Of a DNA stretch of 11,357 bases, positions 2,192-9,463 are shown in pieces. The number at the start of each line of letters is the position of its first letter. The first letter of the stretch is position 1. The DNA comes from a virus (lineage: Duplodnaviria > Heunggongvirae > Uroviricota > Caudoviricetes). The notes under the pieces are model-generated. The model searched no databases and had not been told where the DNA came from. It was given only the letters and a program-made list of their open reading frames with translations. The stretch lies in IMG/VR virus record IMGVR_UViG_2698536339_000015, one strand, 5' to 3'. Made by a program: the position numbers and the translations under genes.

Positions 2192-2221
2192 AATATAGCC
2201 CCGTTAATGCGGATTTGTCAA
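2192..2221 (-). promoter_or_regulatory. Candidate sigma70 promoter (minus strand) about 210 nt upstream of the AntA-like gene
   Basis: Minus strand TTGACA (2221..2216), 18-nt spacer, TATATT (2197..2192). Exact -35 consensus and 5/6 -10. Confidence 0.45.
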
Positions 2222-2300: not shown

Positions 2301-2861
2301 TCATGCAGCCTTTCGTTCTCCTTCGATGAGTTCCTCGATCTTGTGCACTCCCGCCTCGTTGTAGCGAAATGTCTCGACCTGCTTGTCACTGTGCGCCGAT
2401 TTGTCGATGAACCACTTCCCGTACTTTTCTGTTTTGAGCATGTAGGTGTTGGCAATGCGCCCTACCTTGTTGGCTGAAATGCCAAGCATGGTGCCAACCT
2501 CCGACGCAGAGTAGTGATGTTCATCAATGACCGGAAGAGGGATTGCACTAAAGCCGACGACGGGATTAATCAGGCTGGCGGCAACGACCTGTTTAGCTTC
2601 CGGTGCGAGGTGAGGGAGGAAGTCGAAGAGGTCTTTCATTGTGTCGACGGTCATTTTCAATGCGCGTGCCTTACGGAATTCTTCAAGGCCATCCGGTGAT
2701 TTCTTCGTGGTCGTTTTTTGTTGCAACTGCTGTTGCATTGATTCAAGTTTGTCGACCAGCGAACGACGGACGGCTTTCGACTCACGTGCGGCGACGCGCA
2801 GGGCTTGCTTGTAGGTCATCACTATAACCACCTGATCCGCTCCGCCTTTTTTCTTATCCAT
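2301..2861 (-). CDS. Phage regulatory/antirepressor-like protein (186 aa as an intact ORF); C-terminal region reminiscent of KilA-C/ANT-type domains
   Basis: ORF with ATG at 2861 and no SD. Protein-like sequence continues in-frame upstream through a TGA to an ATG at 3044 that has a good RBS. Confidence 0.5.
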   Translation of the reverse strand: MDKKKGGADQVVIVMTYKQALRVAARESKAVRRSLVDKLESMQQQLQQKTTTKKSPDGLEEFRKARALKMTVDTMKDLFDFLPHLAPEAKQVVAASLINPVVGFSAIPLPVIDEHHYSASEVGTMLGISANKVGRIANTYMLKTEKYGKWFIDKSAHSDKQVETFRYNEAGVHKIEELIEGERKAA

Positions 2862-2863
2862 GG

Positions 2864-2886
2864 GGGTTACGAAAATTTCGTAACCC
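2864..2886. repeat. 23-bp perfect palindrome GGGTTACGAAA-A-TTTCGTAACCC
   Basis: Eleven-bp arms verified base by base around a central A at 2875, ending 3 nt from the ATG at 2861. Confidence 0.8.
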
Positions 2887-3061
2887 TCCCCCTCAAGCTC
2901 ATCTTTGATGCGTGCAATGAAGTCGTTGTTGCGTACTTCTTTTTCGCCTCACAGTCTCCGCGCCTCATTAACCATTTTCAACAGCATCTGGCTGTCAATT
3001 GTTGCAGCCGGAAACGAAGACTGATTTGCAATATTGTTAATCATGTATTCTGTCCTTTTCA

Positions 3062-3089
3062 GATAAAAGAAATCCCCGCCAATGCGAGG
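3062..3089 (-). terminator. Terminator-like hairpin (minus strand) between the ASCH-like gene and the interrupted ORF
   Basis: Minus RNA CCUCGC-AUUG-GCGGGG (6-bp stem with one G-U pair) followed by AUUUCUUUUAU. Confidence 0.35.
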
Positions 3090-3093
3090 ATTG

Positions 3094-3378
3094 TTATTCA
3101 TTGCCGATATTCACCTTTATCGCGTATACCTTTACCGGTTTATCGCCGAAGTGCGGATGTGTGATTGTCTTGATTTCATATCCGCCATACGGAACATCAA
3201 TTCTGCGGCTGGAATCGTCGCGCTTCGGATACCCCTTCGTGATGATCAGACTGCCATACTCGCGGTTAACGAGGCGCTTTTTCCAGTAGTCATTAACAAG
3301 GCGATACTCTTCCGTTTTCTCTCCGCGAATCATGGCATCGAAGTATTCACTTTTAACAGCAAGTTGCAGGTTAGCCAT
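3094..3378 (-). CDS. ASCH-domain-like small protein (94 aa from the ATG at 3378; the listed ORF begins one codon earlier at GTG)
   Basis: GEKTEEYR matches the ASCH GxKxxExR motif. Its ATG overlaps the TGA of the upstream TraR-like gene (TGATG). Confidence 0.65.
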   Translation of the reverse strand: MANLQLAVKSEYFDAMIRGEKTEEYRLVNDYWKKRLVNREYGSLIITKGYPKRDDSSRRIDVPYGGYEIKTITHPHFGDKPVKVYAIKVNIGNE

Positions 3379-3599
3379 CACTTAATCCCCCTTTGTTTGC
3401 GGATAAGCTCCAGATCTTGCTGGCAACTTGCACAAGTCCGACAACCCTGAACGGCCAGGCGTCTTCGCTCATCTATGGGATCGCCACACTCACAACAATG
3501 AGTGGCAGATATAGCCTGGTGGTTCAGGCGGCGCATTTTTATTGCTGTGTTGCGCTGTAATTCTTCAATTTCTGATTCTGAATCAATGATGTCTGCCAT
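3378..3599 (-). CDS. DksA/TraR-family C4 zinc-finger protein (73 aa), lambda Orf73-like
   Basis: Two Cys pairs, CECG...CRTCASC, in a 73-aa protein at the position of TraR-like genes in lambdoid pL operons. Confidence 0.8.
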   Translation of the reverse strand: MADIIDSESEIEELQRNTAIKMRRLNHQAISATHCCECGDPIDERRRLAVQGCRTCASCQQDLELIRKQRGIK

Positions 3600-7344: not shown

Positions 7345-7671
7345 TCAAATAAGTGGTTTGCTGCCTAATTTCATTTTCTGGCGACCAACACAAGTCACAC
7401 CCATTTCACTGCGTGGCTTGCTGTACCATGTGCGCTGATTCTTGCGCTCAATACGTTGCAGGTTGCTTTCAATCTGTTCGTGGTATTCAGCCAGCACTGT
7501 AAGGTCTATCGGATTCAGTGCGCTTTCTACTCGTGATTTCGGTTTGCGATTCAGCGAGAGAATAGGGCGGTTAACTGGTTTTGCGTTTACCCCAACCAAC
7601 AGGGGATTTGCTGCTTTCCATTGAGCCTGTTTCTCTGCGCGACGTTCGCGGCGGCGTGTTTGTGCATCCAT
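7345..7671 (-). CDS. N: Antitermination protein N, 108 aa from the ATG at 7671 (the ORF track extends 26 codons further upstream)
   Basis: MDAQTRRRERRAEKQAQWKAANPLLVGV...LQRIERKNQRTWYSKP matches lambda N including the arginine-rich boxB-binding motif. The last ~22 residues (RSEMGVTCVGRQKMKLGSKPLI) differ from lambda. Confidence 0.9.
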   Translation of the reverse strand: MDAQTRRRERRAEKQAQWKAANPLLVGVNAKPVNRPILSLNRKPKSRVESALNPIDLTVLAEYHEQIESNLQRIERKNQRTWYSKPRSEMGVTCVGRQKMKLGSKPLI

Positions 7672-7829
7672 CTGGATTCTCCTGTCAGTTAGCTTTGGTG
7701 GTGTGTGGGAGTCGTAGTCCTGAACGAAAAACACCCCGCAATGGCACATTGGCAGCTAATCCGGATTCGCACTTCCGGCCAATGCTTCGTTTCGTATCAC
7801 ACACACCAAAGCCTTCTGCTTTGAATGCT

Positions 7830-7860
7830 GCCCTTCTTCAGGGCTAAATTTTTAAGAGCA
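7830..7860 (-). promoter_or_regulatory. nutL: boxB GCCCTGAAGAAGGGC (7844..7830) and boxA TGCTCTTAA (7860..7852)
   Basis: Exact lambda nutL boxB hairpin on the minus strand with boxA immediately upstream, in the N leader. Confidence 0.85.
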
Positions 7861-7892
7861 TCACCTTCATGGTGGTTAGTGCGTCCTGCTGA

Positions 7893-7941
7893 TGGCTAAA
7901 TAGTACGATTTGTACTTTATCGAGTCAATACAAAATGTTCT
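7893..7941 (-). promoter_or_regulatory. pL promoter with oL operators: -35 TTGACT (7928..7923), 17-nt spacer, -10 TACTAT (7905..7900), TSS near 7893; operator inverted repeats at 7902-7916 and 7927-7941
   Basis: Promoter elements read on the minus strand. Downstream of the -10 the sequence becomes lambda-like (ATCAGCAGGACGCAC...). AGTACGATTTGTACT is a perfect inverted repeat overlapping the spacer and -10. Confidence 0.65.
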
Positions 7942-7991
7942 AAATATAATTAGTTTTTTATAACGCTTTGTATTTAATGGGTTTATATTTT

Positions 7992-8021
7992 GGAAAAAGA
8001 AAACCCGACGCTAAGGTCGGG
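7992..8021 (-). terminator. Rho-independent terminator (minus strand) downstream of cI
   Basis: Minus RNA CCCGAC-CUUAGC-GUCGGG (6-bp stem) followed by UUUUCUUUUU, 33 nt after the cI stop. Confidence 0.5.
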
Positions 8022-8053
8022 TTATTGTTGTGTGTTTTAGAGTTGTGAGGCTG

Positions 8054-8749
8054 TTAACTAAATGTCTCTTCAGGCCACTGGCTGGCGATAACTTTCCCTA
8101 CTACGGAACAGCTATCATTGCATGGAATCATTGGATATTGCGGGTTTAGTGGCTGTAGGAACACCTGACCGCTATCCCTGATCAGTTTCTTGAAGGTAAA
8201 CTCGTCACCACCAAGTCTGGCTATGCAGAAATCACCTGGCTCAACAGCCTGCTCAGGGTCAACGAGAATTAACATCCCGTCAGGAAAGCTTGGCTTGGAT
8301 CCTGTTGGCGCGGTCATGGAATTACCTTCAACTTCAAGCCAGAACGCACAATCACTGGCTTTTTTGGTTGTGCTGACCCATCTCTCCGCATCACCTTTGG
8401 TAAAGGTTCTAAGCTCAGGCGAGAACATCCCGGCCTGAACATGAGAAAAAACAGGGTACTCATATTGTTTTTTAACGGGGGCAGATGAGTATTCGCCAAC
8501 AGGTGAAAATGTACCGTCGTGGTTGAATGAGACGTTATCAATACCAAGGTATTTAAACACCACACCAATCTCGTCAAGAGATGGATGACGAGATCCGCGC
8601 AACCAGTGACCAATTCCACCCTGCGTCATACCAAGCTCTTCAGCTAACTTCTCTTGAGTTATGCCGAGCTCTTTCATTCTGGATCTAGCCAGTTCATACC
8701 ATTTCATTTTCATACCCTTATTATTACGCTCTGTACTAAAACCATCCAT
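8054..8749 (-). CDS. cI: CI-type prophage repressor (231 aa from the ATG at 8749): non-lambda HTH N-terminal domain plus lambda-cI-like S24/LexA-type autocleavage C-terminal domain
   Basis: From [30 protein letters not shown]... to the end matches the lambda cI C-terminal domain (including AGMF and GNSM). The N-terminal ~95 aa are unrelated to lambda cI but contain an HTH ([25 protein letters not shown]). Start is uncertain: TTG at 8755, ATG at 8749 (possibly leaderless like lambda pRM), or ATG at 8713/8707 after AAGGG. Confidence 0.85.
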
Positions 8750-8810
8750 GCACAAGATGTATTTTTTGTTTGCATTCTAAAAGTACATATCGTATTATTG
8801 TTTCATGGTT
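8750..8810. promoter_or_regulatory. oR/pR/pRM region: pR -35 TTGCAT (8770-8775), 17-nt spacer, -10 TATTAT (8793-8798); operator AGTACATATCGTATT (8782-8796)
   Basis: Divergent intergenic region between cI and cro. The operator repeat has the same AGTAC-N5-GTAyT architecture as the oL site and overlaps the pR -10. Confidence 0.55.
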
Positions 8811-8824
8811 ACTATGGAGGGCAT

Positions 8825-9040
8825 ATGAGCAACCTACGAAAATATCGAGAGTCACTGAATATCTCTCAAACAACACTTGCTAAGGCAGTTGGATGCACAC
8901 AGGGAGCTATCGGACATTGGGAATCTGGTCGTCGCTTCCCAGACCTTAAAACATGCCGTGCTCTTGTTGAGTGCCTAAACAAGTTGGGCGCAAAAGTCAG
9001 TCTTGATGACGTGTTCCCGCCGGAACACAAAGCCGCTTAA
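8825..9040 (+). CDS. cro: Cro-type HTH repressor (71 aa), 434-Cro-like fold rather than lambda Cro
   Basis: ATG at 8825 preceded by GGAGGG. HTH LNISQTTLAKAVGCTQGAIGHWESG has a recognition helix very similar to that of the cI N-terminal domain ([11 protein letters not shown]). Confidence 0.8.
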   Translation: MSNLRKYRESLNISQTTLAKAVGCTQGAIGHWESGRRFPDLKTCRALVECLNKLGAKVSLDDVFPPEHKAA

Positions 9041-9048
9041 GACATTCC

Positions 9049-9080
9049 CGCTCTTACACATCCCAGCCCTGAAAAAGGGC
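9049..9080 (+). promoter_or_regulatory. nutR: boxA CGCTCTTAC (9049-9057) and boxB GCCCTGAAAAAGGGC (9066-9080)
   Basis: Exact lambda nutR boxA and boxB sequences directly downstream of cro. Confidence 0.85.
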
Positions 9081-9159
9081 ATCAAATTAAGCCACACCTA
9101 TGGTGTATGCATTTATTTGCATACATTCAATCAATTGTTATCTAAGGAAATACTTACAT

Positions 9160-9438
9160 ATGCAACTTACAAGTACTCGCAAGAAAGCGAATGCAATTAC
9201 AAGCAACATCCTGAATCGAATTGCTGTACGTGGTCAGCGAAAGGTTGCCGACGCGTTAGGGATTAATGAATCGCAAATTTCGCGATGGAAAGACAGCTTT
9301 ATCCCAAAGATGGCCATGCTTCTGGCTGTGCTGGAGTGGGGTGTTGAAGACGAGGAATTAGCAAAGCTAGCAAAGAAAGTAGCCATGGTGCTGACAAAAG
9401 AAAAGCCTCAAGACTGCTGCAACAGTTTTGAGGCCTGA
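9160..9438 (+). CDS. cII: CII transcriptional activator homolog (92 aa)
   Basis: ATG at 9160 with AAGGA RBS. The central region (SQISRWK...IPKMAMLLAVLEWGV) aligns with lambda CII; both termini differ. The upstream 60 nt are lambda-like, including the pRE -10 region. Confidence 0.8.
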   Translation: MQLTSTRKKANAITSNILNRIAVRGQRKVADALGINESQISRWKDSFIPKMAMLLAVLEWGVEDEELAKLAKKVAMVLTKEKPQDCCNSFEA

Positions 9439-9463
9439 TGTAGAAAGACTGGATCAATCCACA
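9396..9463 (-). ncRNA. oop: OOP-like antisense RNA, about 65-70 nt, opposite the cII 3' end
   Basis: pO-like promoter on the minus strand (-35 TTGAGT 9498..9493, 17-nt spacer, -10 CATAAT 9475..9470). Terminator GCCUCAA...UUGAGGC (9434..9405) followed by UUUUCUUUUGU. Confidence 0.5.

Follow-up and report, generated by a model that had tools for sequence, protein, structure and literature searches.

The 11,357-nt stretch of DNA analyzed here (the window; IMG/VR record IMGVR_UViG_2698536339_000015) is the integrase-to-replication part of a lambda-like E. coli prophage. On its minus strand, at positions 2301-3044, it contains an interrupted gene that we consider, with a probability of about 0.88, to be a nonsense allele of a conserved non-essential gene of the early-left operon. 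The gene, delimited by the reading of the frame, its match to PHROG 1726 and a pseudogene mark in RefSeq, spans 744 nt (247 codons and a stop), and its in-frame TGA is codon 32. The ATG at 3044-3042 (-) opens 31 sense codons (MINNIANQSSFPAATIDSQMLLKMVNEARRL; 2952-3044), ended by the TGA at 2951-2949 (-), whose next base is G. Another 29 sense codons (2862-2948), with no in-frame ATG, GTG or TTG among them, lead to the ATG at 2861-2859 (-), which opens a 186-residue open reading frame (ORF; 2301-2861) that stops at TGA 2303-2301. Direct reading bears out this layout, which had been given in a preliminary description made from the letters of the DNA. The AAGGA that the same description proposed as a good Shine-Dalgarno (SD) sequence before ATG 3044 is also present (3053-3057, minus strand), with a spacer of 8 nt instead of the 9 nt reported. 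An ATG farther upstream in the same frame (3101), which overlaps the stop of the upstream ASCH gene, already opens the frame; some annotators choose this start, which gives a 266-residue protein (P0122), and most use ATG 3044. ATG 2861 was described as lacking an SD, and none is found at normal spacing; however, a perfect 23-nt hairpin, itself preceded by GAGGGGGA, is located 2 nt upstream. This hairpin is formed by the palindrome GGGTTACGAAA-T-TTTCGTAACCC (2864-2886, minus strand), which lies within codons 54-61 (GYEIFVTP).

The stop codon is a real and widespread feature. The 861-bp stretch that contains the TGA is identical in 14 independent complete genomes, whose sources include humans, chickens, a giant panda, a rabbit farm and seawater, and a 15th genome shows the TGA in a diverged copy. 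Allele-specific 41-mer probes, which do not seed across a mismatch at codon 32, were run against 5,426 complete E. coli genomes: TGA was found in 15 genomes and CGA in 19 (29 places), and neither CGC nor TGC on the window background was found in any. Among 11 IMG/VR contigs, three show TGA, five CGA and three TGC. The product of the 186-residue ORF (P0121), which is reported by gene callers and whose expression is putative, is indexed in 953 blocks of the protein collection, and the TGA was present in all ten sampled places encoding it; the 247-residue product is found on 992 contigs. In the two RefSeq records inspected, the same sequence is flagged as a pseudogene with an "internal stop", and the stop itself is thus already known from public annotation. 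A sequencing or assembly error in the window, which had been raised at first, has a negligible probability against the same TGA in the three contigs, in the ten sampled places and in 15 complete genomes that different laboratories obtained from various hosts and countries.

The intact form of the gene belongs to a large family. Using as query an intact copy that is the same as the window except for codon 32, the protein matches PHROG 1726, labelled 'anti-repressor', with an E value of 1.7e-96, from residue 2 to 246 against profile positions 3-264 of 264. A large protein collection holds 1,901 homologues, and the best 120 of them are mostly 241-251 residues long, show about 95-100% coverage, span the junction between the two open segments and come from Escherichia, Salmonella, Serratia, Klebsiella, Morganella, Pantoea and others. 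A second homologue search, with the N-terminal module alone, returned mostly fragments and added little. The homologues of the conceptual product of about 247 residues are therefore uninterrupted across the junction, as the preliminary description had supposed. Its alternative, a 186-residue gene whose homologues start at ATG 2861 behind unconserved upstream codons, disagrees with the alignment, where the homologues are full length and the 60 codons before Met62 are among the most conserved of the family, with invariant I16, D17, L22, N26, R29, E34, R38, N39, N40, D48, E49, L50, G52 and Y55. At codon 32, at least 90% of the family has Cys. Intact members YP_009907844.1 (Shiga toxin (Stx) phage Lyz12581Vzw), YP_009908348.1 (Stx2a_F451) and WP_000609351.1 are collinear over their full length with the window gene and share its position, downstream of ASCH/eaa/DUF551-type genes and upstream of an AntA-type Ant gene, xis and int; they differ from the window copy, which has the TGA at codon 32. 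The Lyz12581Vzw copy shows 99.5-99.6% nucleotide identity to the window, and its coding sequence, annotated as a 247-residue "anti-repressor", differs only at codon 32, which is CGA (Arg). The Stx2a_F451 copy is 87% identical and has TGC (Cys) at this codon.

Searches with the intact protein found no Pfam family at E ≤ 1 (no AntA, ANT/KilAC, P22_AR_C or Bro-N domain), nothing meaningful in NCBIfam and no PDB sequence match. Weak matches to Ant-type PHROGs were obtained (phrog_63 at E 1e-7 and phrog_130 at E 1e-3), and hhalign of the family against the neighboring Ant protein gave a non-significant probability of 1.8%. The N-module (residues 1-105) and the C-module (112-246) each occur without the other, fused to different partners, in many Enterobacterales (L044-L093), and one relative (P0120) joins a Bro-N domain to the C-module, a form of module shuffling that is typical for phage Ant, Bro and Rha proteins. 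Independent lesions are found in other alleles of the family. In L018 (GCA_019602795.1, 1332-2070; protein P0041), a frameshift in the run GGGGAGGG leaves ORFs of 58 and 189 residues, and the lesion-bearing proteins, P0011, P0035, P0037, P0040 and P0064 among them, include several C-terminal frameshifts and one internal deletion, as expected of an accessory gene under weak selection. Two short forms were considered and set aside: P0038 (189 residues) as a native short gene is only a downstream start choice on an intact ORF, and P0041 as a recurrent truncation at Met62 is truly truncated, but by an independent frameshift in the G-run of another allele.

The tertiary structure of the intact protein was modeled with AlphaFold, with a mean predicted local distance difference test (pLDDT) value of 76 and values of 70-91 in the domains. 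The model shows an N-terminal MerR/excisionase-like winged helix-turn-helix at residues 15-86 (strand 15-17, helices 18-31 and 39-49, strands 56-60 and 71-77, helix 78-86), a linker of two long helices (90-113 and 120-142) and a C-terminal winged helix-turn-helix at 178-246, in the order helix-helix-strand-strand-helix. By this model, the intact product appears to be a two-module DNA-binding regulator, built like the phage proteins of Rha, Roi and Ant type, in which helix 39-49 is the predicted recognition helix; on the basis of the palindromic site and of dimeric structural matches, we assume that it acts as a dimer. The 31 codons left by the stop cover strand 1 and helix 1 of the N-terminal domain and are all that translation aimed at the full-length protein can now yield. 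The stop after helix 1 cuts off R38-N39-N40 and helix 39-49, which are encoded by the 29 codons at 2862-2948. Translation from ATG 3044 would end after 31 residues and the full-length product would be lost, because the TGA precedes these elements; the truncation thus points to loss of function of the TGA allele. The residual products would be at most a trace of UGA read-through and possibly some 186-residue C-terminal fragment from ATG 2861. A product from Met62 would retain the rest of the N-domain, the two long helices and the C-terminal winged helix-turn-helix, without the N-terminal helix-turn-helix.

Several points weigh against a plain loss-of-function allele derived from an intact anti-repressor gene. 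The TGA could be older than the CGA; a functional 186-residue product is possible, as an SD-like GAGG precedes ATG 2861 and the hairpin between them could join the two; the synonymous-only changes of one diverged TGA prophage copy (L015) would fit selection on the C-terminal part; and the 'anti-repressor' label is annotation by propagation only. The internal start would be real if the hairpin brought the upstream GAGG near ATG 2861 as a split ribosome-binding site, such as the one of T4 gene 38, and the TGA allele would then still make a functional 186-residue protein. In favor of this, the mRNA shows in order GAGGGGGA, hairpin, CC and AUG, ACCCCCATGGA is the same in five otherwise different 'TPMD' alleles, the TGA allele is common, and in L015 all seven substitutions downstream of the stop are synonymous. 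However, the Met after the hairpin is missing in most family members (VQK, GQK and KPS types), which argues that internal initiation is not the conserved role of the hairpin. Part of the G-run is paired in the RNA fold, none of the homologues has a native length of about 186 residues, and the 87 nt from the stop to the ATG are long for reinitiation. Recombination with functional alleles would explain the L015 pattern equally well, since TGC alleles share several of its states. We therefore regard a working internal start as improbable. A designed short upstream ORF with reinitiation, also proposed in the preliminary description, finds no support in the family, whose homologues are full length and have Met62 only in the TPMD sub-type.

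The Cys that the family has at this column suggests that the UGA could be recoded in a programmed manner, either as selenocysteine or by read-through; however, the fold of the 81 nt around the UGA and past it is no more stable than that of shuffled sequence (z -0.29), with no SECIS (selenocysteine insertion sequence)-like hairpin, and there is no Rfam match. In addition, the stop is confined to one near-identical lineage and is not conserved in diverged homologues, the nearest relatives have CGA (Arg) and not Cys, and the Prokaryotic Genome Annotation Pipeline annotates the UGA as an internal stop. Recoding is thus very improbable, and the nonsense allele is the reading that we retain.

Whether the CGA gave rise to the TGA or the reverse is roughly even, and in either direction the window carries a nonsense allele. 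Position 2951 is the only difference within the gene between the closest CGA and TGA haplotypes; when about 1.3 kb is compared, the length of one G-run differs as well. In the reversed direction, the family TGC would have changed to TGA in this lineage, and the CGA of Stx phages and other prophages would have arisen later, by a T-to-C pseudo-reversion through which the frame was restored, a history to which we give slightly under an even chance. It has in its favor that TGC, TGA and CGA are a complete single-step chain, while the path TGC to CGC to CGA to TGA needs three changes in one codon, a priori much less likely than two, and its intermediate CGC is absent from the 5,426 genomes and from the 11 contigs. 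The T at 2951 of the TGA alleles is also the state of the outgroup alleles (L011, L002 and L017). Repair of the stop under selection would account for two substitutions in codon 32 against only two in the surrounding 150 bp, as well as for the rare CGA codon and the dissimilar Arg at the Cys column. The diverged L015 shows TGA too, with outgroup states at 2997, 2352 and 2262. On the other side, CGA is found in several unrelated phage contexts and TGA, in every copy whose surroundings were read, in one prophage arm, a pattern that usually marks the TGA as younger. The loop bases 3082/3080 of a terminator-like hairpin with a T-rich tail (3071-3092, minus strand), located between the ASCH stop and the SD of the gene, vary by allele (T/G or C/C), and TGA is found only on the derived haplotype of this upstream loop. 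These loop sites and 2951 show all four gametes, so that recombination or recurrent mutation is needed under either direction, and the patchy differences of L015 fit a recombinant mosaic, which would deprive it of value as an outgroup. A candidate Cys allele on the window's own background (P0130/L030) was rejected as a recombinant, whose TGC arrived with a foreign 5' segment. In L030 (GCA_024527455.2, 3001-3729), the 5' part up to about 2946 is of the 'MKNNVMKNG' type with TGC and the 3' part is nearly identical to the window; the crossover lies between 2946 and 2875, adjoining the palindrome.

All TGA copies whose surroundings were read are located in the same prophage arm. With the exception of one diverged copy (138 differences), the TGA arms show 0-16 differences in 3,913 nt; the chromosomal flanks of the seven places comparable in register differ from the reference at 2 to 130 of 3,357 nt (up to 3.9%), and at least three different immunity regions are found to the right of the arm. 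The diverged TGA prophage copy L015 shows about 2% differences overall and none over the 587 bp around the stop; no donor for its divergent patches was found in the 5,426 genomes. The TGA thus seems to be an established allele that travels with a prophage lineage which moved between hosts or recombined. Of the recent nonsense mutation in a gene of about 247 residues that had been suggested, the single-base nonsense change stands and its recent date is not established. Neither is a private, datable decay in a domesticated prophage, given near-identical arms beside chromosomal genes with 1.4-3.9% differences and next to several immunity regions. The gene is probably dispensable for the phage, because the TGA lineage spread across backgrounds. 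Some TGA carriers are visibly degraded: the TGA-bearing left arm is a remnant in L028 (CP148361.1) and L025, and in L028 chromosomal LysR, LysE and TehB-like genes stand in place of everything past the DUF2528 gene. In the prophage of strain AMSHJX01 (L029/L003, NZ_CP030939.1, 1772903-1824000), the int end adjoins mdtA and the other end ybhB/bioA (the lambda attachment region), which suggests an inversion between two prophages; that arm bears the type III effector genes nleH, cif and espJ and a frameshifted major capsid gene.

The 23-nt palindrome, detected by an inverted-repeat scan, has longer perfect arms than all other close inverted repeats of the window, and as RNA it folds with -19.9 kcal/mol (z -2.4). 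Among homologues of Enterobacterales, a palindrome is kept at codons 54-61 in 36 distinct sequences from many genera with differing letters, for example GTACTACGAAAtTTTCGTAGTGC, GACCTACAAAAtTTTTGTAGGTC, GTTTTACACTaaaAGTGTAAAAC and GCACTACAAAAtTTTTGTAGTGC. Paired cells amount to 90.4%, compared to 31-49% with slid partners, and double-sided changes are found in seven of the 11 pairs, one of which shows as many as five pair types. Shuffles give a covariation score of 0.155, compared to an observed 0.505, which none of 500 shuffles reaches. RNAalifold on 240-nt stretches recovered the same helix and no other helix with double changes. Codons 54 and 60 are reverse complements of each other, as are codons 56 and 58 and codons 55 (TAC) and 59 (GTA). 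Even synonymous choices obey the pairing: Phe is TTC opposite GAA and TTT opposite AAA (Lys), Gly is GGT opposite ACC, and Thr is ACC opposite GGT. Residues 54/60 are found as G/T, T/G, F/K, H/V and Y/V, and residues 56/58 as E/F, K/F and T/S. The constraint therefore acts on the nucleic acid and the amino acids are dragged along, since synonymous positions obey it too. On the sense strand, four unique sequences show G.U and six show A.C, with no bias toward either RNA or DNA.

The inner core of the palindrome is coupled to residue 41 without exception (33 DNA haplotypes, 171 proteins) in three classes: TACGAAA.TTTCGTA with D41, TACAAAA.TTTTGTA with V41, and TACAC...GTGTA with K41, the latter together with E44 and K45 (N45 in one protein). 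The outer arms (codons 54 and 60) vary with the wing-loop type and are not tied to any of the three inner classes. Codon 54 is located between residue 41 and the inner core, and linkage alone would hardly produce such an interleaved coupling. Apart from chance-level matches with three mismatches, no further copy of the palindrome was found in the window or in the complete genome of Lyz12581Vzw (62.7 kb). A search of the available literature did not find the palindrome sequences in print, and the covarying palindrome is reported here as new.

The reading that we favor, tentatively and at less than even odds, is that the palindrome is a putative operator of the gene's own product, located where the gene encodes strand 2 of the N-terminal winged helix, within the DNA-binding domain. 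The constant TAC/GTA would be recognized by the invariant R-N-N and the variable inner base pair by residue 41, with the wing touching the outer positions; the need for symmetry of the site would dictate the amino acids of codons 54-60, and the TGA allele would leave an orphan operator without its protein. In a weaker version, the palindrome would be a conserved mRNA hairpin acting in cis, which in the TGA allele would also bring the GAGG next to ATG 2861. Two other explanations compete with these: a functionless quasipalindrome kept perfect by template-switch mutation, and a contact of helix 2 with strand 2 in the protein, which would account for the coupling of residue 41.

Comparison with known systems bears on both the protein and the putative operator. 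HK022 Roi (241 residues) and Rha-type proteins, with a Phage_pRha N-domain and an ANT/KilAC C-domain, are like the family in size, helix-turn-helix-type N-domain, helical linker and C-terminal winged helix, and like the present gene they are encoded by non-essential lambdoid accessory genes. However, no sequence homology between Roi and the family is detectable (hhalign probability 0.2%), Roi has Pfam pRha and ANT matches and the present family neither, and the roi gene is located in the nin region whereas the interrupted gene is in the early-left arm. HK022 Roi has been reported to bind at a site within its own gene, which would be a precedent for the putative operator; no comparable palindrome was found in roi. 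The winged helix-turn-helix domains of the MerR family, RacA and pSK1 Par show 8-17% sequence identity to the model, a comparison that does not specify which of its two domains was aligned, and the present protein has no effector domain. The literature search found no published experiment on any PHROG 1726 member, and the only antirepressor with an experimental study that it found is Phi24B Ant, which does not correspond to the interrupted gene. Phi24B Ant shows 82% C-terminal identity to P22 Ant and accelerates induction (PMC3064807). It is the neighboring Ant gene (1355-1978), not the interrupted gene, that shares the P22-Ant C-terminal domain (P22_AR_C) with Phi24B Ant and P22 Ant.

The gene order of the window was established from its ORFs and annotated relatives. 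On the minus strand, int (1-1074) is followed by xis and by the intact Ant gene (1355-1978), which according to domain matches carries AntA and P22_AR_C. Upstream of the interrupted gene are the ASCH gene (3094-3381) and, past it, a TraR/DksA gene and then exo, bet, gam, kil, cIII and ral, followed by a cI-type repressor gene (8054-8755), all of them on the minus strand; cII, O and P are found past cI on the plus strand. A cro-type gene, annotated between cI and cII in related records, lies between them. The other early-region ORFs of the window are uninterrupted and correspond to annotated genes of relatives, with no other broken gene. The gene order of the prophage arm is the same in all ten sampled places of the 186-residue ORF, and the gene listed beyond int is mdtA in eight of them. 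None of the 5,426 genomes covers the whole window. Its left 7.4 kb is 99.7-99.8% identical to several complete E. coli genomes, while its immunity region (7364-9448, compared with L003, L008, L012 and L016) belongs to a different mosaic than the relatives of the left arm. Over its cI region (7807-8996), the window shares 99.4% identity with an unrelated prophage in strain E2.

A sequence scan found no promoter-like site directly before the interrupted gene, which is probably read by antiterminated leftward transcription. Just past its stop codon, the scan found a hairpin TTTTCCCC-N7-GGGGAAAA (2264-2286, not assigned to a strand), whose G-run has five G in TGA alleles, six in most CGA alleles and four in more distant alleles. 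A promoter-like TTGACA-18-TATATT (11 of 12 matches) at 2192-2221 (-), about 210 nt upstream of the Ant start at 1978, suggests that Ant may have its own promoter and a long leader. An imperfect 22-nt palindrome, TGATTAACAATATTGCAAATCA (9 of 11 pairs), extends over 3022-3043, from the TG of ATG 3044 through codon 8. LexA control was considered and rejected: there is no exact CTGT-N8-ACAG box, and the one-mismatch matches are weak and inside coding sequence.

The stop codon in itself matters little, being a routine nonsense allele of a dispensable prophage accessory gene. As the TGA is nearly as frequent as its intact sister allele (15 and 19 complete genomes, respectively), it is usable as a lineage marker for the prophage arm. 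Furthermore, the TGC, TGA and CGA chain may record a stop repaired to Arg, which would be a modest case of pseudogene rescue in nature. The covarying palindrome and its coupling to residue 41 are of more value than the stop. Should the protein bind its own palindrome, a widespread family that is labelled "anti-repressor" without evidence would gain a direct function open to testing, DNA binding at a defined site, and it would be an unusual case in which the symmetry of an operator constrains the sequence of the very domain presumed to read it.

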